Part shown: in pieces, positions 6,010 to 28,926 of the stretch
Layout: every line of letters starts with the position of its first letter
Position numbering within the stretch: position 1 is the first letter of the stretch
NCBI GenBank assembly: GCA_016716705.1
Contig: JADJVF010000011.1
Location: 18,687 to 82,686 of the forward strand
Direction of reading: 5' to 3'
Source of the DNA: Holophagales bacterium
GTDB lineage: Bacteria > Acidobacteriota > Thermoanaerobaculia > UBA5066
DNA: 64,000 bases
The notes under the pieces: generated by a model
The model's database searches: none
What the model saw: the letters and a program-made list of their open reading frames with translations, nothing else
Told to the model about the DNA's origin: nothing
Made by a program: the position numbers and the translations under genes

Positions 6010-6020
6010 TGGTCACCCCC

Positions 6021-7343
6021 TCAGAAGGACGTCCGGAGGTTGAGGACGGTCAGGTTCGCGTGGTTCTTGTACCGCCCGTTGAAGTTGTCGTCGTTTGTCG
6101 TGACGGACCGCTCGTTGAAGAAGAGGAAGAGGTTCGAGGCGTCGACCCAGACGTTCTTCATCATCTTCCAGCTGAAGCCGATGGAGTAGCCGTTGCGGTT
6201 CATGTCGGGGAGGAGCGGGCCTACGTCGCCGTCGGGCTCGGGAGTCTGGTCGTAGACGTAGCCGGCCATGAGGTCGAACTTGTCGCTCGCCTGCCACTTC
6301 GCGCCGAAGCGGAACGCCCAGGCGTTCTCCCAGTCGTGGGGAAGGTTGCTCGTCGGGATCTGCTTTCCGTCGACCGCCTCGAACTCGAGGACGGTCGTGT
6401 CGAAGGCCGACCACTCCGTGTAGGTACCGGCCGCCTCGACCGTGACCTTTCCGAAGTCGTAGGAGATGCCCACCTGGGTCATCGCGGGCGCCTGGATCGT
6501 CGTCTTCACCGGGACCGGCTTGCCCAGCGGGACCTTCGCGGCGAAGGCGGCGTCGAGGTCGGCGTAGCCGGTCCCGAGCTGGTAGAACATCGCCTCGCCG
6601 TCGAACTTCGCGTCGACCGCACCGTGGTAGGAGGCGCCGATCGAGAGCCTCGGGGTCGGCGTGATCTTGATGCCGGCGCCGAAGGTGACGTCCATCTCCA
6701 TGTCCGCGCGGATGTCGGTGTGCGCCGCGTCGACGACGCGGTTCGTGTAGGGGTTGAAGAGCGGGATCTTCCGCTGGAGCTTCACGTCGGTGAAGCGGAA
6801 TTCCGGGCCGACGCCGACCGCGAGGTAGTCGTTGATCTGCCAGGCGACCTGGAGGCCGGCGGCGTACTGCTTCAGGTCGACGTAGGTGGAGAGGTAGCGG
6901 CCGCGCCAGTCCGGCTCGCTCCACCTCGTCGCGAGGCCGAAGGGGAACCAGGTTCCGAAGGAGAGGCTGACGCACTCGCTGAGGCCATAAGATGCGTAGA
7001 AGTTCGGCGGGAAGAAGAACTGGTCGTGCATCTTGCTCGAGTAGCCCTGGCCCGGGTAGGGGTTGTAGCCCTCGGCGAGCTCGGACGTCGGGACGATGAG
7101 GGTCACCCCGACCATCGCCTTCAGCTCACCCTTCTTGACGTACTTGGCGAGACCCGCGGGGTTGTAGAACATGGCGGACAGATCGTCTGCCTGCGCTACG
7201 AACGCCCCGCCCATGGCCGTGGAACGGGAGCCTGCTTCAAAGATCGAGAACCCCGCGGCGGCCGCCGGGCCTGCCGCGAGCAACATGGCGGCCAGAAGGA
7301 GCGATAGCCCTCCAAGTCCGTACCGGGAACAGCCTCTCAACAC
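6021..7343 (-). CDS. fadL: FadL/TodX/OmpP1 family outer-membrane long-chain hydrophobic compound channel
   Basis: GTG start at 7343 (RC) preceded by GGAGGG. Signal peptide RYGLGGLSLLLAAMLLAAGPAAAAG, then FSIFEAGSRSTAMGGAFVAQADDLSAMFYNPAGLA, typical of FadL. C-terminal Phe is typical of an OMP. Confidence 0.8.
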   Translation of the reverse strand: MLRGCSRYGLGGLSLLLAAMLLAAGPAAAAGFSIFEAGSRSTAMGGAFVAQADDLSAMFYNPAGLAKYVKKGELKAMVGVTLIVPTSELAEGYNPYPGQGYSSKMHDQFFFPPNFYASYGLSECVSLSFGTWFPFGLATRWSEPDWRGRYLSTYVDLKQYAAGLQVAWQINDYLAVGVGPEFRFTDVKLQRKIPLFNPYTNRVVDAAHTDIRADMEMDVTFGAGIKITPTPRLSIGASYHGAVDAKFDGEAMFYQLGTGYADLDAAFAAKVPLGKPVPVKTTIQAPAMTQVGISYDFGKVTVEAAGTYTEWSAFDTTVLEFEAVDGKQIPTSNLPHDWENAWAFRFGAKWQASDKFDLMAGYVYDQTPEPDGDVGPLLPDMNRNGYSIGFSWKMMKNVWVDASNLFLFFNERSVTTNDDNFNGRYKNHANLTVLNLRTSF

Positions 7344-7427
7344 GAATCCCTCCTCTTCCGCGTAAACGCGCCGTGTAACAAGACTCCAGGAACGGGGCGA
7401 TTCTCTCTCCCGGCTGTCCAGAGTCAA

Positions 7428-7461
7428 GGCCCCTCCCGGACGGTGTCGTCCGGGAGGGGCC
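7428..7461 (-). terminator. terminator hairpin downstream of gcvPB
   Basis: 15-bp perfect stem ggcccctcccggacg / cgtccgggaggggcc with a gtgt loop, 22 nt after the gcvPB stop (7483-7485). Confidence 0.45.
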
Positions 7462-7482
7462 TGAGGGTGCTCGGAAGAAGGG

Positions 7483-9015
7483 CTAGGAGCGGCGAACCGG
7501 CGCCCGGAGAACCGGGGCGAAGTTCCCGGGCTTCGAGGCTTCACGTGCCAGGAGGGCCTCGTCGACCCGGCCGACCGGGGTGACGTGGGGCGCCGAGGTG
7601 ACGAGTTCGGGGCTCTCTTCGGCCTCCCGGGCGATGGCGATCATCGCGTCGGCGAAGGCGTCGAGCTCCTCGATCGGCTCGGACTCGGTCGGCTCGATCA
7701 TGAGCGCGCCGTGGACGATGAGGGGGAAGGACATCGTCGGCGGGTGGAAACCGTAGTCCATCAGGCGCTTGGCGACGTCGATGTTGTGGACGCCCTTCGC
7801 CGCCTGGAGGGTGTCGTCGAAGACGACCTCGTGGTAGCTCGGGGCGTCGTACTTGAGGTGGTAGAACGGGGCGAGCTTCTTCCGGAGGTAGTTCGCGTTC
7901 AGGACGGCGTTCTCGGCGACCTCGCCGATCTCCTGGCCGTACGACAGGATGTAGGTCAGGGCGCGGACGAGGACGCCGAAGTTGCCGTAGAAGGTCCGCA
8001 TCCGGCCGATCGAGTCGGGGCGGTCGAAGTCGAGGCGGAAGCCCGTTCCCTCGGGCTCGATCGTCGGGACGGGGAGGAACGGCACGAGCGCGGCGCCGAC
8101 GCCGACCGGGCCGGCGCCCGGGCCGCCGCCGCCGTGGGGCGTCGAGAACGTCTTGTGCAGGTTCATGTGCATGACGTCGACACCCATGTCGGCCGGCCGG
8201 ATCTTCCCGACGAACGCGTTGAAGTTCGCGCCGTCGAGGTAGACGTAGCCGCCCTTCGCATGGACGATCCGGGTGACCTCGAGGATGTTCTCCTCGAAGA
8301 CGCCGAGCGTGTTCGGCACCGTGATCATCACGGCGGCGACCTCGTCGGTCATCATCTTCTCGAGCTCGGCGGGGTCGAGAGTCCCCCGGGGCGTGGAGGC
8401 GAGCTCCTTCACCTGGTACCCCGCGAAGTGAGCGCTGGCGGGGTTCGTGCCGTGGGCAGAGTCGGGGACGAGGACGTACTTCCTCGGGGCTCCGGCCTTC
8501 ACGTGGGCGGCGCGGATCATCAGGCAGCCGGCCAGCTCGCCATTGGCGCCGGCGGAGGGCTGGAGCGTGACGCGCGCGAAGCCGGTGAGGGCGATCAGGG
8601 CCGCCTCGAGGCGGGCCATCAGCTCGAGCGCCCCCTGGGAGAGGTGCCCGGGGGTGTACGGGTGGACGTCGGCGAAGCCGGCGAGCCGCGCGATCTCCTC
8701 GTTGATCCGCGGGTTGTGCTTCATCGTGCACGACCCGAGCGGGTAGAGGTTCGCGTCGATCGAGAGGTTCTTCTGCGACAGCCGGGTGAAGTGCCGGACG
8801 GCGTCGACCTCCGACGCCTCCACCTCTCCCTCGACCTCGGTCCGGTGGAGCGCACCGAACAGCGCCTCCGGGTCCGCCCCGGGGACGTCGAGCGGCGGGA
8901 GGAGGACGCCCCGCCGTCCGGGACGGGAGGCGTCGAAGATGGAGGAGGCGCCGCGACGGCGGTCGAGCCGCGCGGCGTCGGGAGCGGGGTTCGTGAGGTT
9001 TCCGTGGTCGCTCAT
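7483..9015 (-). CDS. gcvPB: glycine dehydrogenase (decarboxylating) subunit 2
   Basis: 510 aa with a PLP-dependent glycine decarboxylase C-terminal-subunit pattern (…GSCTMKHNPRINEE…HLNLHKTFSTPHGGGGPG…). Confidence 0.9.
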   Translation of the reverse strand: MSDHGNLTNPAPDAARLDRRRGASSIFDASRPGRRGVLLPPLDVPGADPEALFGALHRTEVEGEVEASEVDAVRHFTRLSQKNLSIDANLYPLGSCTMKHNPRINEEIARLAGFADVHPYTPGHLSQGALELMARLEAALIALTGFARVTLQPSAGANGELAGCLMIRAAHVKAGAPRKYVLVPDSAHGTNPASAHFAGYQVKELASTPRGTLDPAELEKMMTDEVAAVMITVPNTLGVFEENILEVTRIVHAKGGYVYLDGANFNAFVGKIRPADMGVDVMHMNLHKTFSTPHGGGGPGAGPVGVGAALVPFLPVPTIEPEGTGFRLDFDRPDSIGRMRTFYGNFGVLVRALTYILSYGQEIGEVAENAVLNANYLRKKLAPFYHLKYDAPSYHEVVFDDTLQAAKGVHNIDVAKRLMDYGFHPPTMSFPLIVHGALMIEPTESEPIEELDAFADAMIAIAREAEESPELVTSAPHVTPVGRVDEALLAREASKPGNFAPVLRAPVRRS

Positions 9016-19316: not shown

Positions 19317-21389
19317 TCAGAACGTCGCCGCGGCCCCCATGGCGAACGTCCGTCCCTGGCCCGGGAAGCCCGCTTCGCTCTCGTAGTCGGCGTCGAGGAG
19401 ATTCCGAATCGCCACGTGGGCCCGAATCCCCTTCACCACCTCCTGCGTGACCTTCGCCCCGAGGAGGACGTAGCCGTCGATCTCCTTGACGGGGTCGTTC
19501 GGGTAGATGGGCGACGGGAGGCTCGTGTACATCGACCCGACGTAGACGGCGTCGAGGTCGAGGAGCGTCTTCGGACCCGGCACCGTGTACGACGCGAGGA
19601 AGCCCGCCTTGTGGGCAGGAACGTTCGTCACGTCGTCCGTGACGCGCCCCTCGCTCTGGTCGGCGGAATGGACGTAGGTGTAGTCCGCGCGCAGGGTGAG
19701 ATCCGGGACGGGGGTGACCTCGACGACCGTCTCGAAGCCGGCCATCCGGACCTGCCCGATGTTCTGGTAGATGTTCAGGCTGCCCGACCCGTTCCGCGAG
19801 ATCAGGTTCCGGACGTCGTAGTAGAAGCCGCCGAGCTCCAGCCGCACGGTCGCCCCGAGCGGATGGGAGACGCTGACGGTCGTGTTGAGGCTCTTCTCGG
19901 ACTCGAGCGCCGTGTTCCCGTTCTTCGTCGAGTAGAGCTGCGAGAGGGTCGGGAACCGGCTCTTGCGCGCGATCGCGGCGTTCACGACAGTCCCGGAGGT
20001 CCCACGCCAGACGAGTCCCGCCATCGGGTTGACCTGCGAGTCGCTGGGCGTCGCGAGCGGGTCCTGGCGGACGAAGTCACCGGTCGAGCCGTCCGTCACG
20101 TTGCGGTTCGCGTTCGAGACGTCGAACCAGTCGAAGGAGACGCCCCCGACCGCCGAAAGACCCTTCGAGAAGGTCATCGCGTCCTCGAGCCCGACCGATC
20201 CGGTGATCGAGCTCGACTCGGCGAACGGAAGGTAGGCGTCGTCGCGCTCGCGGTGCGTGTCGTCCTTCAGGTGCGCCGAGAAGCGCAGGGTGTTCGAGGT
20301 CGCCACCTGCCACTCGCCGAGGAGGTTGCCCCCCGCGAGAGTGTCGTCGTAGCGGCTCACGGCGATCTGCTCGCGGTGCTCCGCGTCCTTGTACGAGACG
20401 AGGTCGTCGACGTGCTCGTGGTAGAAGCCCTTCGCCTTGAGCGTCAGTCCCGGGGCGAGCTGGTGCCTGCCGTCGAGATCGACACCGAGGTCGCGGTACG
20501 TCGGGATCTCGTTGAACTGGGAGAACGCGGGCCGCTTCAGGAAGACCTGCACGCTGTCGGTCGAAGGGGGGACGCCCTTGTCGCGGTCGAAGTAGTGGAG
20601 GTTGAGGAAGAGCGCGGACGCGGAGGAGGGCTCCCAGCCCACCTTTCCCCAGGCGTTCAGCGACCGGGTGTCGGAGCTCTCCCGTTTCCCGCCGTCCTCC
20701 AGGACCGCCGGAGTCGTCTTGCTCGGGTTCTTCTGGACGATCGTCCCGACCTTCGGCTCGTAGGAGCCGGAGACCGGCGTTCCGCCGCTCGTCTCCCCCG
20801 AGACGTTCAGCCAGTAGCTGAGCGCGCCGTGCCGCTGGCCGTGCGTCGCGGAGAATCGGCCGGTGGCCCAGTCGCCTCCCTCGGCCCGGATCTCGGTGTG
20901 CGGCGTCGTGCCGGCGGTCTTGCTGATGATGTTGATGGTTCCGCCGAGGGCGTTCGCGCCGCTCAGCACCGAGGCGGCCCCCTTCGTGATCTCGATCCGG
21001 GCGACGTTGTCGGTCGGGATCTGCGCGAGGTCGAGCTTGCCGTAGTTCGTCTCGTAGTACGGGACGCCGTCGATCAGGACCTGGACGCGGCTCTGGTCGA
21101 AGCCGTGGACGTAGACCGTCGGCTCGTTCTTCCGGCCGGTCGAGACGCGGAGGCCCGGGACGTTCGCGAGCGCCTCGGCGACGTTCTTCGCGTTGCGGGC
21201 CGCGATCTCCTCGGCCGTCACGGCGACGGTCAGGGCGGTCTCGTCGACCCTGTCCGCCTCGGCGGTCACGGTGACGCGGGCGAGAGCGTAGGCCTCGTAG
21301 CTCGGGGTCGGGTCCTCCGCCCGGGCGGACAGCGAGGAAAGGCCGATGCACGGCAGGAACAGGACGAGGAGACGGTATGCCTTGTTCAC
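19317..21389 (-). CDS. TonB-dependent outer-membrane receptor
   Basis: GTG at 21389 (RC) with GGAGGA 4 nt upstream. Signal peptide VNKAYRLLVLFLPCIGLSSLSARA. Plug-domain motifs (…TGRKNEPTVYVHGFDQSRVQVLIDGVPY…). Beta-barrel with a C-terminal aromatic (…GAAATF). Confidence 0.85.
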   Translation of the reverse strand: MNKAYRLLVLFLPCIGLSSLSARAEDPTPSYEAYALARVTVTAEADRVDETALTVAVTAEEIAARNAKNVAEALANVPGLRVSTGRKNEPTVYVHGFDQSRVQVLIDGVPYYETNYGKLDLAQIPTDNVARIEITKGAASVLSGANALGGTINIISKTAGTTPHTEIRAEGGDWATGRFSATHGQRHGALSYWLNVSGETSGGTPVSGSYEPKVGTIVQKNPSKTTPAVLEDGGKRESSDTRSLNAWGKVGWEPSSASALFLNLHYFDRDKGVPPSTDSVQVFLKRPAFSQFNEIPTYRDLGVDLDGRHQLAPGLTLKAKGFYHEHVDDLVSYKDAEHREQIAVSRYDDTLAGGNLLGEWQVATSNTLRFSAHLKDDTHRERDDAYLPFAESSSITGSVGLEDAMTFSKGLSAVGGVSFDWFDVSNANRNVTDGSTGDFVRQDPLATPSDSQVNPMAGLVWRGTSGTVVNAAIARKSRFPTLSQLYSTKNGNTALESEKSLNTTVSVSHPLGATVRLELGGFYYDVRNLISRNGSGSLNIYQNIGQVRMAGFETVVEVTPVPDLTLRADYTYVHSADQSEGRVTDDVTNVPAHKAGFLASYTVPGPKTLLDLDAVYVGSMYTSLPSPIYPNDPVKEIDGYVLLGAKVTQEVVKGIRAHVAIRNLLDADYESEAGFPGQGRTFAMGAAATF

Positions 21390-21476
21390 GGGTCCTCCGT
21401 TCGAATTCGGCGTCCGCGCCCGCCCTTCGGATTCCGCCGGGAACCTGCGAAACTGGCGCGTCGCCGTGGAAGTGAC

Positions 21477-21866
21477 GTGTTGAAGCCGTCGAAGAAGCCG
21501 GGAACCGAACGCCCGGCCCCGAGCCCCGCCCGGCTGAAGCCGAGGTTCCGGGTCCTGCGGGACGGCGAAGTCCTCGTCGGACCGGGGATGGTGGAGCTTC
21601 TCGAAGCGATCCGGCGCACGGGGAGCCTGCGGGTCGCCGCCAGCGAGCTGCAGATGTCCTACATGCACGCCTGGGGCCTCGTGAAGACGATGAACCAGGC
21701 GTTCCGGAGCCCGCTCGTGGAGCTCTCGCGCGGCGGCGCCCAGCGGGGAGGCGCCCTCCTCAGCGCGTGCGGCGAGGAGGTGCTCGCCCTCTACCGGGTG
21801 ATGGAGGCCGAAGCCCAGCGCGCCGTAGCGAGGCACTGGCGGCGCCTGAAGCGCCTCCTCTCCTGA
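21477..21866 (+). CDS. ModE N-terminal-domain-like winged-HTH regulator (short; no TOBE/Mop domain)
   Basis: GTG 21477 or TTG 21480. GPGMVELLEAIRRTGSLRVAASELQMSYMHAWGLVKTMNQAF…GGAQRGGALLSACG aligns with E. coli ModE residues about 20-90 (GSISQGAKDAGISYKSAWDAINEMN…GGKGGGGA). Ends at 21866. Confidence 0.6.
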   Translation: MLKPSKKPGTERPAPSPARLKPRFRVLRDGEVLVGPGMVELLEAIRRTGSLRVAASELQMSYMHAWGLVKTMNQAFRSPLVELSRGGAQRGGALLSACGEEVLALYRVMEAEAQRAVARHWRRLKRLLS

Positions 21867-22064
21867 CCCCGGAAGGCCCGACGACTCCTCCGCGACGAAC
21901 GCCAAGCCGATCTATTCTATAGAAGATATCGGAGCCGGGGCCCCGCGCGGTCGAGGCGAGAACGGGCGGAGGGCGAAGGCCCGGTCTGCCCCTCCCCGCC
22001 TCGTTCTCCGGACTGAAACAACCGCCTCGTTGCGAGTTTCGCCACTCCTCGGCAAGATGGCGCG

Positions 22065-23129
22065 ATGAGAAGTCTCGTGGTCCTGCCTCTCCTCGTCGGC
22101 ACCCTCCTCGCCGGTTGCTCGAAGCCTTCCGGGGGGGAGAAGGGTCCGGCGGCCCTCGTCGCGACGCAGGACCCGAAGGCGGTCGTGGCCCGCGTGGACG
22201 GCTCTCCCATCACCGAGGGCGAGCTGATGGTCGAGGCGAGGGCGTCGATGGCGGCGGCCGAGAAGCAGTTCCTCGAGGCGGTCCACGCGCAGAAGGTCCG
22301 CGCGCTCGACCGGCTCGTGGAGAAACGGCTCCTCGAGACCCGGGCGAAGAAGGAAGGGATCACGGTCGAGGTACTCCTCGACCGTGAGGTCGTCCGCAAG
22401 GTCCCCGAGCCCGCCGAGGCGATCCTGCAGGCGGTCTACGACCAGACGAAATCCACCGGGCGCCCGCTCCCGCCGTTCGCCGAGGTGAAGGCCGAGATCG
22501 CCGCCTTCGTGAAGGGACAGTCGGCGCAGGAGACCCACCAGGGGTTCATCGCGCGGCTCCGCGCCGAGTCCAGGGTCGAGAGCCTCCTGCCCCCCCTCCT
22601 GCTCCCGAAGGTCGTCTTCACGGCGGACGGCCCGTCCCGCGGCGCGGCCGGGGCCGCGGTGACGATCGTCGAGTTCTCGGACTACGAGTGCGGGTTCTGC
22701 GGCCAGGCGGAAGAGGTGGTCCGCAGGGTGATCGCCGAGTACAAGGGGCAGGTCCGCCTCGTCCACCAGGCGTTCCCGCTGGCGGGGCACCCTCGCGCCC
22801 CCAAGGCGGCCGAGGCGGCGCTCTGCGCCGGAGAGCAGGGCCGGTACTGGGAGATGCACGATCTTCTCTTCGCGGGCCAGGGGGCGCTCGGGATCGACGA
22901 CCTGAAGGGGCGCGCCCGAACGCTCCAGCTCGACGCGCCGCGGTTCGACGCCTGCCTCGACTCGGGCCGGATGGCGCCCGTCGTCGAAAAGAGCCGGAAG
23001 CTCGGAGAGGGAATCGGGGTGGACGCCACCCCGGCCTTCTTCGTCAACGGCCGACCCCTCTCCGGGATGCAGCCGTTCGAGCGGTTCAAGGAGCTCGTCG
23101 ACCACGAGCTGGCGAACCCGGGCCGCTGA
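22065..23129 (+). CDS. lipoprotein: SurA-N-like chaperone domain fused to DsbA-family thiol:disulfide oxidoreductase
   Basis: ATG at 22065. Lipobox LLAGC. N-terminal SurA_N-like segment. Thioredoxin-fold active site EFSDYECGFCGQ and a cis-Pro region VDATPAFFVNG, typical of DsbA. Confidence 0.7.
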   Translation: MRSLVVLPLLVGTLLAGCSKPSGGEKGPAALVATQDPKAVVARVDGSPITEGELMVEARASMAAAEKQFLEAVHAQKVRALDRLVEKRLLETRAKKEGITVEVLLDREVVRKVPEPAEAILQAVYDQTKSTGRPLPPFAEVKAEIAAFVKGQSAQETHQGFIARLRAESRVESLLPPLLLPKVVFTADGPSRGAAGAAVTIVEFSDYECGFCGQAEEVVRRVIAEYKGQVRLVHQAFPLAGHPRAPKAAEAALCAGEQGRYWEMHDLLFAGQGALGIDDLKGRARTLQLDAPRFDACLDSGRMAPVVEKSRKLGEGIGVDATPAFFVNGRPLSGMQPFERFKELVDHELANPGR

Positions 23130-23302: not shown

Positions 23303-26300
23303 ATGAGAGAAGAGGCAAGAGGACATTCCCGGGGCATCGTCCCCATCGCGGCAGCGGCCCTGGGAGCGGCGCTGCTCATCGGGGCCGGCACCGCCCAGGC
23401 TGGCGTCAAGTATCTCGGTGACGGGGCCGTCCAGAACGCCCGCGGAGGCTGGGACCTTCCCAAGCAGGGAGCCTGCCCGGCCGACCTGACGGCCAAGACC
23501 CGTCCCGACTGCGTTGCGCGCCGGTTCGTCGCCAAGGACTCGGCGGCCTGCACGGCGCTCGGCGCCAGCGGCGCCTACTCCTGGAGCACCGGCGTCTGCA
23601 ACGACCTCGTCAACAAGACCGAGGCCGCCTGCAAGGCGTCCACGGACCGCTACTGGAACGCCGCCGCCAGCGTCTGCGCCGTCGTGATGCAGGACGACGA
23701 CCGCAACGCGATCAACTGCGCCCAGCACGGTGGCACGTGGGTCACGGCCGGTAACTGCACGGCCGCGTGGGTCATGCCGGCCCGGGACGACTCGTCCTAC
23801 GGCGCAGGCGGGCTGCTCACGTCCAACGGCGCGGGCGACCAGTGCCTTCGCTGCCACAACACCGTGACCCAGTACAACGGGCCTCGCGTCCGCGACACGA
23901 ACTTCACGCTGATGCAGGGCCACAAGAACATGGCCCGGCCCGTCGACGCCGCCTTCAAGCCCTGGGGCGGGCCGCCGTTCTCCTGCACGGGCAAGGCGAC
24001 GGCCACCGACGAGCACGAGTGCGTCGCCGCCGGCGGGACGTGGGACCCGACGATCTACCCCGCCGACGACTCCGGGAACACCATCAACTGGACCAAGAAC
24101 ACCATCACCACGAGCGCCGGGACCTTCGACCTCAAGTGGATCTACGGCGACTGGCTCGGCCCGCTCCCCCGCGCGATCTACACGGGGGCCACGCTCAACA
24201 ACATGAGCTACTCGTGCGGCCGCTGCCACACGACCGGCTGGACGAGCGACGCGGGGACGACCCCGAACGCGAAGAAGCACCCCGAGCTGGACTTCCCGGG
24301 CATCACCTGGAACGGCACCGGGACGACCGGCCAGGTCAAGCTGGGCGGCGGCGTCGCGGGCGACAAGAACGTCATGTCCTCGTGGGACCAGTGGGGCATC
24401 ACCTGCTCGCGCTGCCACAGCAGCGCCGTCGACGACGCGACCTCGGGGCCGCCCTACAGCGCCCCGGCGGGCATGTCGACCCACCACAACGCCCTCACGA
24501 GCCCGAACGCCAACAACGGCGCCTGTACCGACGTCCGCTGGTCGAGCGCTCCCTCGGGCTCCACTCTCGAAGCCGCCTGCAATTCCACCGGCGGCACGTT
24601 CCTGACGGCCTGCAGCGTCAACCCGACCCCGGGTGTCTGCACGGCGGCCGCGAATACGAAGGACAAGTGCACGGCGGTCGCCGGCACCTGGGTGGCCGCG
24701 AAGGCCGGCTGGTGCAGCAACGCGTTCTACGGCGACTCGGCGAGCTGCACGGCGAACAAGTACACGTGGACCGACGGCTGGTGCAAGACGGCCGACGCCC
24801 AGGCCGCCTGCACGGGCGGTACCGGCGACGCCGCCAAGACCTGGCGCGCCAACGGCAGCCAGGCTTCATGCCAGGTGGCCGGCGCGGCCTGGACCTTCTC
24901 GAAGTGCACGGTCGAGGGCTACTGCAGCGCCGGGACCTGCAGCGACGTGAAGTACACGAACCAGAGGGACTGCACCGAGGCGGGCAAGACCTGGTGGGCC
25001 ATCCGGTCGAAGTCGGCCTGCGACACGGTCGGCGGTCAGTTCGCCTACGCGACCGACGTCGTCACCTGCGGTGACGCCGGCGGCCGGTGGTTCGGGAACA
25101 ACACGAACCGCGGCCAGATCATCACGTCGGTCTGCATGGACTGCCACCGCCAGGAGACGAGCGGCCTCCCGAACACGAACGGCAGCTGCAGCGACGGCAA
25201 GACGACGACGCAGGGCGCCTGCGTCGCCGCCGGCGCGACCTGGACCGAGACGGGTAACGGCCTGCCGGTCACGGTCGGCCCGTACCACAACACCGTCACG
25301 TTCCCGAGCCACCCGGCCGGCAACCAGTTCCTCAACAGCCCGCACGCCAAGTTCAGCGGCAAGTGGAGCGATATCGCGTCGGGCAAATACGACGGCTCGT
25401 CCGCCGGCAAGTACCAGAGCTCCTTCATGGCCCTCGGCGAGGCCTCCGGCACGGGCAACGGCTGCACGGGCTGCCACGAGATCCACACGAGCATCGTGGT
25501 CGGCGAGAAGCCCTTCCGCGAAGAGTGCAACACCTGCCACCACGTGAAGAACCTCGAGCACCTCATGCACCCGGCGGGCCACGGAACGCCGCTCGAGAAG
25601 GCGGAAGAGGACCCGATGGAAGCCTGCGTCATGTGCCACATGCCGGAGGGGCAGCACCTCTTCCGGATCAGCACCGACGCGGCCTACTCGACCTTCCCGC
25701 CCGCGCAGGCGATGACCGCCAACACGTCGGCGAACACCGCCCCCGACGGCAGCTACACGAACGCCGTCTGGGTCGACCTCGACGCCGCCTGCGGCCAGTG
25801 CCACGGCGGCGGCGCGGCGAACGCGAAGACGACCGGCACCATCGCGACGGGCTCGGCCGCCCTCACGGTCGCGAGCACGACCGGGCTCGCCGTCGGCGAG
25901 CGGATCAACGTCGCCGGAGCGGGCGCGTTCGCCAAGTCGGGCTCCTGGTACGACCTCCACACCTACGTCAAGGCGATCGCGGGCAACGTCGTCACGCTCG
26001 CCGGCACCGCGACCCACGGCGTCACGAACGCCGCGGTCACGCAGAACCCGACGACGAACGGCGCGAGCTACGTGACCAAGGCGAACCTCGCCGTCCTACG
26101 CGAAGGGAATCCACAACGACAGCCCGGAGGCGAGATTCACGGTGAAGCAGGGAGCCAACGAGCTGACGGTCGCGGTCGATGCCTCCGGTACCAAGTGCCG
26201 CGGCAGCGCCGCGAACTGCGGCGCCTTCGACTGGAACTGGGGCGACAACACCGCGCACGGTTCCGGCAAGACGGCGACGCACACCTACGCCGCTCCGGGC

Positions 26301-26678
26301 AACTACACCATCACCCTGACGGTCGAGGACGAGGAGACGGGCACGGGCAGCGCCACCCAGACCTTCGCCGCCAAGGCGATCCCCGGGGCGCCCACCGTGA
26401 CCGGCACCTGCACGCCCGACTACCCGAAGGCGAGCGTGAGCTGCGCGGTGACCGTGCCCACCGGGGGCTACGCGAGCGTATCCGTCTACTTCGGTGAGGG
26501 CTATAACGTGGACAAGGTCAGCAACCCGGCCGCCGGAACGCTGACCATGACCCACACCTACCAGCAGTTCGACAACTACACGATCATGGCGACGGCCACC
26601 AACGCCGCCGGCCAGTCGACGACGGCTCCGATCGGGTTCATGGCCCGGGGCCTGTTCGTCAACGACAAGAACAGGTAG
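23303..26678 (+). CDS. secreted multihaem c-type cytochrome (8 CxxCH) with a Cys-rich GGTW repeat array and C-terminal PKD domain; apparent frameshift near 26076-26141
   Basis: ATG at 23303, RBS AAGAGGAGGG. Signal peptide. Haem motifs CLRCH, CGRCH, CSRCH, CMDCH, CTGCH, CNTCH, CVMCH, CGQCH. The PKD motif FDWNWGDNTAHGSGKTATHTYAAPGNYTITLTVED lies in the +1 frame, which opens after TGA 26073-26075. GGAGG lies 11 nt before GTG 26142, so a separate PKD ORF is possible. Confidence 0.7.
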
Positions 26679-26962: not shown

Positions 26963-28926
26963 ATGCGGGTACGGCTGATCGTGTATTTCGGGGTGGTTCT
27001 TGCGGTGCTCCTCCTGGCCCTCATTCCGGGCGCGGCGGTCTCCCCCACGGGGTGGACCGTCGTCGCCTGGAACAACCTCGGGATGCACTGCATGGACGCC
27101 GACTTCAGCGTCTTCGCCATCCTGCCGCCCTACAACACGATCCAGGCGCACGTCGTCGACGCTTCCGGAAAGCTCGTGAAGAGCTCGTCGTCCGTCACGG
27201 TGACGTACGAGGCCGTCGCCGACCCGACCGGCTCCATCAACACGACGTCGCAGGGCAAGACGAACTTCTGGGACCACGTCGTGGCGCTGTTCGGCGCGTC
27301 GCTACCTGTCGACGCGGGGCTCGCGGGGAAGGACATGCCGGGGTCCTCGAACGCGCCAAAGCCGATGACGTTCGATGCCTCGAAGAACTGGTTCATCGCC
27401 GAGGGGATCCCGATCACCCCGTACGACGACGCGGGGAACAAGAATCCCTACCCGATGATGAAGGTGACGGCCCGTGACACCTCGGGCAACGTCCTCTCGT
27501 CCACTCGCATCGTCCTTCCCGTCTCCGACGAGATGGACTGCCGGACCTGCCACGCCTCCGGCTCGCCCATCGACGCCCGGCCGGCCGCGGGCTGGGTCTT
27601 CGACCCGGACCCCGAGCGGGACTACCGCCTGAACGTCCTCCGGCTCCACGACGAGGCGGCCGCCTCGAGCCCGGCGTATGCGCCCGCCCTCGCGGCGGCC
27701 GGGTACGACCCAGCGGGCCTCTACGCCAATGTCACGGTCCGGGGAAAGCCGATCCTCTGCGCCGCGTGCCACGCCTCCGAGGCGCTCCCCGGCAGCGGCC
27801 AGGCCGGCATCCCGCCGCTCACCCAGGCCGTTCACGCCCGGCACGCGGGGGTCAACGACCCGACGAACGGGCAGCCCCTCGGCTCCTCCACGAACCGGTC
27901 GGCCTGCTACCGCTGCCACCCCGGCTCGGAGACGAAGTGCCTGCGCGGGGCGATGGGAGCGGCGACGGCGGCCGACGGCTCGATGCTCATGCAATGCCAG
28001 GACTGCCACGGCCTGATGGCGGCGGTCGGTGCGACGACGCGCACGGGCTGGTTCGACGAGCCCACCTGCCAGCAGTGCCACACCGGTACGGCGACGAAGA
28101 ACTCCGGCCAGATCCGCTTCACGTCCGTCTTTGACGGGGACGGCAATCCCCGCGTCGCCGCCGACGCGCGCTTCGCGACGAACGTCGACACGCCCGCCGC
28201 GGGCCTCTCTCTCTACCGGTTCTCGAAGGGGCACGGCGGCCTGCAGTGCGCGGCGTGCCACGGATCGACGCACGCGGAATACCCCTCCTCCCACGTGAAC
28301 GACAACCTCCAGAGCCTCGACCTGCAGGGGCACGCGGGGACGATCGGCGAGTGCGCCGCCTGCCACGGCGGGAACGTCCCGCAGACCGTCTCCGGGGTCC
28401 TCACGGGATGCACCCGGTCGGCTCGTCGTGGGTCGACAGGCACGAAGACGCGGCCGAGGGCAGCCTCGCCTCCTGCCGCACCTGTCACGGCGCAGACGAT
28501 CGCGGGACCGTCCTCTCTCGCGGGTTCGCCGAGCGGACCCTGAAGACGAGGGCCGGTACGAAGACCTTTGCCGCCGGCACGACGTTCGGCTGCTACACCT
28601 GCCACAACGGACCGGACGGCGAGGGGAACCCTCCGGGCGGTGGAACGCCGACCCCCACTCCGACCCCCCGCGTGACCGCGACGCCAGGTCCTACGACCAC
28701 GCCGACCGTCAGGCCCACGAGGACCGCGACCCCGGGCTGGACTTCGACGCCCACCCGGACGCCGACCCGGACTCCGACCGTCCGGCCGACGAGGACACCG
28801 ACGCCTACCCGCCCTCCGCGGTCGACCGCCACCCCCACGCCGACCCGCCGGCCGCGACACGACGGGGACAGCCCGCTCCCCGTGGGTGACCCGGGAGTCG
28901 CGGGACCGGTCCCGATCCGGCGCTGA
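26963..28926 (+). CDS. secreted multihaem c-type cytochrome (7+2 CxxCH) with C-terminal Pro/Thr-repeat tail; apparent frameshift near 28376-28415
   Basis: ATG at 26963 with AAGGAGGG. Signal peptide [27 protein letters not shown]. Haem motifs CRTCH, CAACH x3, CYRCH, CQDCH, CQQCH in frame A. CRTCHGA and CYTCHNG, then (T/R)PT repeats, in the -1 frame, which ends at 28926. Confidence 0.7.

Follow-up and report, generated by a model that had tools for sequence, protein, structure and literature searches.

A cysteine-paired G-G-T-W module of a Holophagales multihaem cytochrome belongs to a repeat that extends well beyond cytochromes

What kind of element is a short module of cysteine, glycine and tryptophan that recurs along a bacterial cytochrome, which of its cysteines belong together, and is it a feature of cytochromes at all? 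These questions are raised by a 64,000-nucleotide (nt) stretch of DNA from a Holophagales bacterium (contig JADJVF010000011.1, positions 18,687 to 82,686; the window), in which the open reading frame (ORF) 23303-26497 (+) encodes a protein, referred to here as cytochrome 1, that is a multihaem c-type cytochrome by its multiple CxxCH motifs and that holds an array of G-G-T-W repeats. It was found that the repeat is not a cytochrome feature but extends well beyond cytochromes, and that its fixed partner cysteine is located upstream of the G-G-T-W core. The module is probably a disulfide-stapled structural mini-domain, widespread and mobile, which scaffolds the non-haem parts of this putatively exported cytochrome.

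Copies of the module and their cysteine pair

All eight G-G-T-W strings quoted in the first-pass annotation of this DNA were recovered verbatim from the translation of 23303-26497 (+), at amino acids (aa) 138, 239, 425, 455, 522, 556, 588 and 639 (nt 23714-25255). The pattern C-x(2-4)-[GA][GAK][TAR][WF] was observed 8 times in cytochrome 1, compared with a mean of 0.135, and never more than 3, when its residues were shuffled 2000 times. With the spacing fixed at C-x3, 9 strict and 10 relaxed copies were counted (relaxed pattern C-x3-[GA][GAK]-x-[WF]), the C-x3-GG-x-W half of the module being present in 10 copies. The annotation's count of at least eight is thereby raised to at least 10 by the relaxed pattern, C482 (CTANKYTW) and C573 (CDTVGGQF) having been overlooked; degenerate copies were seen at C70, C83 and C110. 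A hidden Markov model (HMM) of the unit returned 10 well-scoring and up to 14 copies from this ORF and none from any other ORF of the window. Among the proteins of the window and of 22 related loci, the module was confined to orthologues and paralogues of the cytochrome, with no occurrence in other proteins.

The modules and the haem-binding sites are arranged along the gene as follows, conservation being given as phi coefficients of cysteine co-occurrence or as percentages, and model confidence as the predicted local distance difference test (pLDDT).

23474..23758 (+): N-terminal Cys-rich domain, aa 58-152, of four modules with eight cysteines (C58, C70, C83, C99, C110, C125, C139, C152); cysteines 96-100% conserved; pLDDT 90-96
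23843..23857 (+): haem site 1, CLRCH (aa 181-185), invariant in 101 sequences
23984..24052 (+): single inserted module, C228-x11-C240-VAA-GGTW; 17.0 bits with the HMM of units from outside the family; phi 1.00
24215..24229 (+): haem site 2, CGRCH (aa 305-309), invariant in 101 sequences
24404..24418 (+): haem site 3, CSRCH (aa 368-372), invariant in 101 sequences
24524..25102 (+): central module array, aa 408-600, with 16 cysteines and helix cysteines at 426, 456, 482, 523, 557, 573 and 589; unit HMM matches
25133..25147 (+): haem site 4, CMDCH (aa 611-615), invariant in 101 sequences
25187..25255 (+): single lineage-specific module, C629-x10-C640-VAA-GATW; 18.3 bits with the HMM of units from outside the family; phi 0.98
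25463..25804 (+): haem sites 5-8, CTGCH (aa 721), CNTCH (aa 742), CVMCH (aa 775) and CGQCH (aa 830), with no G-G-T-W modules among them

Four degenerate-to-canonical copies lie ahead of haem 1. Of the 10 copies, 7 form one array between haem 3 (C368) and haem 4 (C611), and haems 5-8 enclose none. Successive copies are separated by irregular gaps of 16-186 residues, not by the 40-80 residues that had been claimed. The full pattern, its two cysteines separated by 9-13 residues, was located at C228/C240, C446/C456, C471/C482, C546/C557 and C629/C640 as well as at C125/C139 (x13); at C99/C110, the cysteine pair is present and the second half of the module is degenerate.

A stack of 902 distinct units yielded the consensus C-[ST]-[ND]-P-x-[YF]-T-[TD]-[QE]-x-x-C-x-A-A-G-G-T-W, in which the most frequent cysteine neighbouring the motif cysteine is placed 11 residues upstream, and the residues after the tryptophan are unconserved. 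Between sequences, the two cysteines of a module come and go together: 106 sequences contain both C228 and C240, 10 contain neither and none contains only one of them (phi 1.00), and co-occurrence is almost as strict for C546/C557 (phi 0.95) and C629/C640 (phi 0.98). In units from non-cytochrome proteins, a cysteine exactly 11 residues upstream was seen in 216 of 378 cases; only the upstream partner was present in 137 and only the downstream one in 32, the downstream positions being scattered. Because of this co-occurrence and of the upstream spacing statistics, C(-11)-C(0) was taken as the defining pair. It follows that the pair of cysteines bracketing G-G-T-W, as proposed in the first-pass annotation, is not the defining one, since the fixed cysteine is upstream (C-x10-C-x3-GG-x-W) and not downstream. 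A downstream cysteine only was nevertheless found in 173 of 903 cytochrome copies, and copies lacking the upstream cysteine may pair with a cysteine after the tryptophan strand instead.

AlphaFold2 modelled full-length cytochrome 1 with a pLDDT of 87.1 and a predicted template modelling score of 0.85 from a 101-sequence alignment. According to DSSP on this model, the module cysteine is predicted inside a helix of 5-7 residues in 13 of 13 copies, followed in most of them by a strand. In the N-terminal domain, the helices 67-71, 80-84, 107-112 and 136-141 each contain one cysteine, with a strand after it, and the same helix-strand pattern is repeated in a model of the isolated array (aa 402-606, pLDDT 82). 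The small disulfide-stapled knobs imagined earlier are thus compatible with the predicted helix-plus-strand units; the disulfides themselves are inferred. A Foldseek comparison of the full model with the Protein Data Bank (PDB) gave nothing at E ≤ 1e-3, and the weak matches (E of about 1e-3 to 0.5, about 85 columns) were to phage tail tube and tailspike proteins and to F/V-ATPase subunits; our guess is that they belong to the small barrel at aa 841-915. No significant match to the aa 402-606 model was returned by Foldseek from BFVD.

A search of 5.8 billion protein clusters provided 193 homologues of cytochrome 1 at E ≤ 0.001, from metagenome-assembled genomes (MAGs) of Thermoanaerobaculia, Holophagales and other Acidobacteriota, named only as 'PKD domain-containing', 'carboxypeptidase regulatory-like' or hypothetical. 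Of 121 family members, nearly all have 8 CxxCH motifs, and the mean number of strict motif copies is 5.9. The non-haem cysteines, whose conservation in homologues had been put forward as a check on the repeat, proved to be 96-100% conserved or else absent only where the alignment is gapped, i.e., where whole modules are missing. The central array, which differs in copy number between orthologues, has a gap fraction of 0.27 and an identity of 0.40, compared with 0.59-0.69 identity in the almost gapless haem regions. At aa 629-650, the gap fraction is 0.50, the module being missing in half of the family, and the C629-C640 module is present as a unit in about 34% of it; the N-terminal four modules, in turn, are highly conserved and not variable. 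Whole modules are hence gained and lost among orthologues around a fixed haem core. At the DNA level, the two lineage-specific modules, C546-C557 (24931-24994) and C629-C640 (25180-25243), are 70% identical over 64 nt, and 24020-24052 is 82% identical to 25220-25252. As far as the nucleotide sequence indicates, this residual similarity represents traces of intragenic module duplication. An origin as recent tandem DNA duplications or as an assembly artefact was rejected, given that Tandem Repeats Finder detects none and that identity reaches only 70-82% over 33-64 nt.

Distribution beyond cytochromes and likeness to known proteins

A profile of 31 positions was built from 74 units. Among 1.84 billion cluster representatives, it matched 361 proteins at E ≤ 1e-3, falling to 68 at E ≤ 1e-10 and to 3 at E ≤ 1e-30. 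The composition of these matches was evaluated on the 140 of the best 150 that had not already been found, and by a Pfam scan of 80 module-bearing proteins. Only 19 of the 140 contain at least four CxxCH motifs and 121 contain fewer, and 16 begin with a prepilin-type N-terminus. N_methyl was the commonest Pfam family (19 of the 80 proteins), followed by Gp10_D3, Phage-Gp8, T4 neck protein, tail-tip, TadE/G, fn3, TIG and VWA, and several matches were assigned by PHROGs to tail fibre (T7-type N-terminus), distal tail protein, internal virion protein and baseplate wedge. The prepilin-type proteins and the phage tail-fibre, distal-tail and baseplate matches carry no CxxCH. Members occur also in several kinds of multihaem cytochrome and in giant surface proteins. 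The representatives originate from Acidobacteriota, methanotrophic Gammaproteobacteria, Actinomycetota and phages; among their source names are prepilin-type proteins from Methylobacter and Methylococcaceae and, from Propionibacteriaceae, an 'InlB B-repeat-containing protein', and none of the source names mentions the repeat.

Unit alignments in the non-cytochrome matches are unambiguous, as exemplified by CSNPIYTTELACTDNGGQW and CSDPTYTTKEECTASKGAW. Conversely, an HMM made from 297 non-cytochrome units scored cytochrome 1 with 58.7 bits over 12 stretches, a value that is partly circular, as these units had first been found with a cytochrome-derived profile. The best scores (25.7, 21.7, 18.3 and 17.0 bits) fall on four canonical C-x10/11-C modules.

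One module-bearing protein weakly matches residues 146-176 (NGMCSIGNLTSKEECIKLGGKWTPST) of 9F4A chain A4, a 'baseplate wedge subunit' (E=0.021), and this segment of chain A4 in turn matches residues 140-165 of T4 gp8 (GMCSIASLTDKDECLKLGGKWTPSAR; 1N7Z, 5IV5 and others) with E=4.5e-9. In T4-type gp8 (PF09215, Phage-Gp8), residues 140-165 are alike to the module in holding the exact C-x10-C-x3-G-G-x-W pattern, with a threonine and acidic residues before the second cysteine, and 1470 phage records contain this segment in their gp8 gene. The gp8 of phage RB14 (4084-5088) reads C142-x10-C153-LKL-GGKW. Domain 3 of T4-type gp10 (PF22670, Gp10_D3) is similar in this respect: the gp10 of RB14 (6018-7823) has an exact unit, C331-EGASSDTQEG-C342-ISL-GGEW, inside its Gp10_D3 match (aa 267-387), and the gp10 of 9F4A has EDCINNGGQW. 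Module-bearing metagenomic proteins match Phage-Gp8 and phrog_977 at module positions, and three module-bearing proteins match Gp10_D3 with E-values down to 4e-5.

The two phage proteins differ from cytochrome 1 in that gp8 contains a single copy embedded in a two-domain protein of 334 aa, with no separate unit model, and in that the module accounts for about 20 of the 122 Gp10_D3 positions. Cytochrome 1 gave no match at E ≤ 1 to the whole-domain models of PF09215 and PF22670, only the embedded element of about 20 residues being shared. The unit profile had no significant match among PDB sequences, with the gp10 of 9F4A appearing at E=1.4, and a phmmer search of the PDB with the protein P0137 found nothing relevant. 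From the PDB, Foldseek matched the aa 402-606 array model solely to 1n7z_A, over 31 columns and insignificantly (E=7.4). T4 gp8 and gp10 are internal wedge proteins and not receptor binders, and the module element goes unmentioned in a review of the T4 tail (PMC3004832). That review names Cys555 as the sole cysteine that the gp10 proteins of all T4-like phages conserve (PMC3004832), which implies that the C331/C342 pair is not universal in gp10.

Pfam-A 2025 assigned no family to aa 40-700 of cytochrome 1, the only matches at E ≤ 1 being cytochrome families at aa 714-844; NCBIfam 20.0 and the PDB sequences gave no match to the whole protein at E ≤ 1. For cytochrome 1 itself, the repeat therefore does not coincide with a known Pfam family, the finding that had been named as a possible refutation of its novelty. 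No repeat family was identified in ten and a further eighty module-bearing proteins that were scanned, and no description of the repeat was found in the literature on multihaem cytochromes, Cys-rich repeats of tail fibres and gp8/gp10 disulfides. The first-pass term 'previously undescribed' stands insofar as the libraries searched hold no stand-alone family, and has to be narrowed insofar as exact copies are embedded in T4-type gp8 and gp10 domain 3.

Among known systems, cytochromes of the MtrC/OmcA/UndA type (PF22113, Mtrc-MtrF_II-IV_dom) are exported, are likewise multihaem and alternate non-haem with haem domains; they have a conserved CX8-15C disulfide in a beta-barrel domain. Cytochrome 1 differs from MtrC/OmcA in having 8 haems instead of 10, no PF22113 match and no sequence or fold match in the PDB, and its non-haem parts are arrays of mini-domains, in contrast to the Greek-key barrels of that type. 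The Myxococcus cysteine-rich repeat TIGR02232 is a short Cys-rich repeat of secreted bacterial proteins with a consensus of the C-x-x-C-G-D-G type. Repeats of this kind resemble the module in their small size (20-40 residues), their tandem order and their occurrence in exported proteins, and are stabilised by disulfides as the module probably is; the consensus is different, however, and no Cys-rich repeat model of NCBIfam or Pfam matches cytochrome 1 or ten other module-bearing proteins. A 'C...GG..W' helix-strand element is also part of the C-type-lectin-like or Lcl C-terminal domain (DUF1566, PF07603) of about 120 aa. Membership in PF07603 was rejected, there being no match at E ≤ 1 and the module units being tandem and of 22-26 aa.

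Host gene and neighbourhood

The gene that carries the repeat and its neighbours were delineated as follows.

22065..23129 (+): DsbA-like thiol:disulfide oxidoreductase with SurA_N domain, directly upstream of cytochrome 1; Thioredoxin_4 E=1.6e-24, DSBA E=3.2e-18
23303..26678 (+): gene of the putatively secreted octahaem c-type cytochrome, which ends in two PKD domains, split by a 1-nt insertion near 26091
23303-26497 (+): cytochrome 1 ORF holding the repeat
23303..23401 (+): putative Sec-type signal peptide (aa 1-33, ending in ...GAGTAQA and followed by GVKY), read by eye from the sequence
26142..26678 (+): pair of PKD-like domains with which cytochrome 1 properly ends, in another frame; PKD_4 E=1.5e-15; continuity in the orthologue P0001
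26843-28926: second multihaem cytochrome with MtrC/MtrF-type domains (PF22113), following cytochrome 1

Cytochrome 1 has 45 cysteines in total, with 8 CxxCH motifs at aa 181, 305, 368, 611, 721, 742, 775 and 830 and 28 non-haem cysteines upstream of the PKD domains. In the 101-sequence alignment, all 8 CxxCH motifs are invariant, as are H207, H394, H681, H728, H756, H785 and M780. Pfam recognised Cytochrome_C7 and Cytochrom_c3_2 as short stretches within aa 714-780 only, and pLDDT was below 50 for aa 1-31. A small all-beta domain (aa 841-915, window 25823-26047) was observed after haem 8. In the window, AT skew reaches its highest positive value, up to +0.26, at 24001-26000; as a guess, the peak stems from the module array, whose coding on the + strand is rich in Thr, Asn and Ala.

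In P0001, an orthologue of 1124 aa with 93% identity, the protein runs on into the PKD frame of ORF 26142-26678, and the final approximately 130 residues of ORF 23303-26497 are out of frame. An extra base was located at window 26085-26096 (CTCGCCGTCC, compared with CTCG-CGGCC in locus L004) and is lacking in all three loci that were aligned (L004, L005 and L007). Through this single-base insertion near 26091, cytochrome 1 is cut off from its two PKD domains. The second cytochrome shifts frame near 28400, where tblastn against L004 gives two frames, and its tail with the MtrC/MtrF II-IV match is encoded by ORF 28246-28926. As there are two frameshifts in 3 kb, assembly indels seem more likely than pseudogenes.

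Seven related loci (L004, L005, L007, L008, L009, L012 and L013) also have the DsbA-like gene upstream of the cytochrome, at identities down to 51%. The gene was rejected as an obligate partner on account of its absence from L006 and L011. A TonB-dependent receptor (Plug and beta-barrel; 19317-21905, -) is encoded further upstream, and its position is kept in L004 and L007. At a more distant locus, the orthologue is the first member of a cluster that encodes cytochromes and NHL proteins. The contig CAWDOT010000004.1, from one Acidobacteriota MAG, holds two paralogues of the cytochrome family about 7 kb apart (L014 and L021).

Role of the module and its meaning

The module would be a mini-domain of about 22-26 residues, consisting of the upstream cysteine and the helix cysteine followed by G-G-T-W. 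In the models, the second cysteine appears in a helix of 5-7 residues that G-G would end, with a beta-strand starting at the tryptophan or just after it. The two cysteines would form an intramodule disulfide and the tryptophan would supply a tiny hydrophobic core, resulting in a rigid, oxidised knob. The disulfide is inferred from cysteine co-occurrence, the spacing statistics and the DsbA-like neighbour, which is a plausible oxidant. With 10-14 copies, a non-haem scaffold could be built from the N-terminal four-module domain, the two single inserts and the variable array between haems 3 and 4. Stabilised by disulfides and resistant to degradation, this scaffold would most probably space and shield a protein that transfers electrons in the periplasm or outside the cell.

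Binding knobs that recognise glycans, cell surfaces or minerals, with the variable central array tuning the docking to a mineral, an extracellular polymer or a partner protein, are a possible but rather unlikely alternative. Such a function would agree with the concentration of the module in surface-contact proteins (T7-type tail fibres, distal tail, baseplate, prepilin-type and giant surface proteins), with the central array being the most variable part of the family, with the unconserved residues after the tryptophan, and with the PKD and CarboxypepD_reg domains at the end of the host protein, which are typical of surface proteins. A structural role is favoured over it because every conserved position (the two cysteines, the Thr cap, G-G and the tryptophan) looks structural, because the N-terminal four modules are highly conserved, and because T4 gp8 and gp10 belong to the internal wedge; in addition, the unit stack showed no conserved patch of polar or aromatic residues for binding. 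The broader idea of an ancient, horizontally mobile surface-recognition knob, common to phage baseplate and tail-fibre proteins, prepilin-type proteins, the surface protein of a Propionibacteriaceae actinobacterium and extracellular cytochromes, is judged to be distinctly unlikely.

Redox-active or metal-binding cysteines, engaged in haem-coupled electron or thiol-disulfide chemistry or in the binding of Fe, Cu or Zn, might be suspected from the location of the cysteines between haem sites and from the adjacent thiol:disulfide oxidoreductase gene. This is very improbable, as the module is also present in phage tail and pilin-type proteins without a redox cofactor, each unit provides two cysteines only and no conserved His, Met or Asp ligand, and no module is found among the closely spaced haems 5-8. 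That the motifs are a by-product of composition is exceedingly improbable: the coding sequence has a G+C content of 0.70 and the protein is rich in Gly, Ala and Thr as well as Cys, but this explanation is already refuted by the results. The shuffles gave far fewer copies, module positions are conserved across orthologues of 40-93% identity, the non-cytochrome HMM scores this ORF, the unit HMM finds no copy in any other ORF of the window, and the predicted secondary structure is regular.

Several observations weigh against the disulfide-stapled structural mini-domain. The DsbA-like neighbour was not found at the orthologous loci L006 and L011, and enrichment in receptor-binding proteins would suit a binding role equally well. 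The tie to gp8 and gp10 combines an exact pattern match with weak statistics: the unit HMMs give 18-21 bits for the isolated segments (E 0.003-0.05 at PDB size) and only 7.5-11 bits for the full-length proteins. T4 is assembled in a reducing cytoplasm, which means that the disulfide is not strictly needed for the fold. 'Uncurated', as used here, refers only to the libraries Pfam-A, NCBIfam and PHROGs, to the sequences of the PDB and to a search of the literature.

With the structural mini-domain as the preferred reading, the module is an uncurated family of a known type of object, the small disulfide-stapled repeat, and implies no new electron-transfer mechanism. As a candidate new domain family with at least 361 cluster representatives at E ≤ 0.001, it deserves a stand-alone model, which would annotate long 'hypothetical' stretches in phage tail, pilin-type and multihaem cytochrome proteins and would give the unexplained cysteine pairs of T4 gp8 and gp10 an evolutionary context. 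Should the surface-recognition reading be true instead, the central array would set the docking target of an electron conduit, and phages and bacteria would exchange the same adhesive building block. For cytochrome 1, the module accounts for about 40% of the protein upstream of the PKD domains, a stretch otherwise without haem or annotation, and the DsbA-like neighbour points to oxidative folding as a requirement for heterologous expression.

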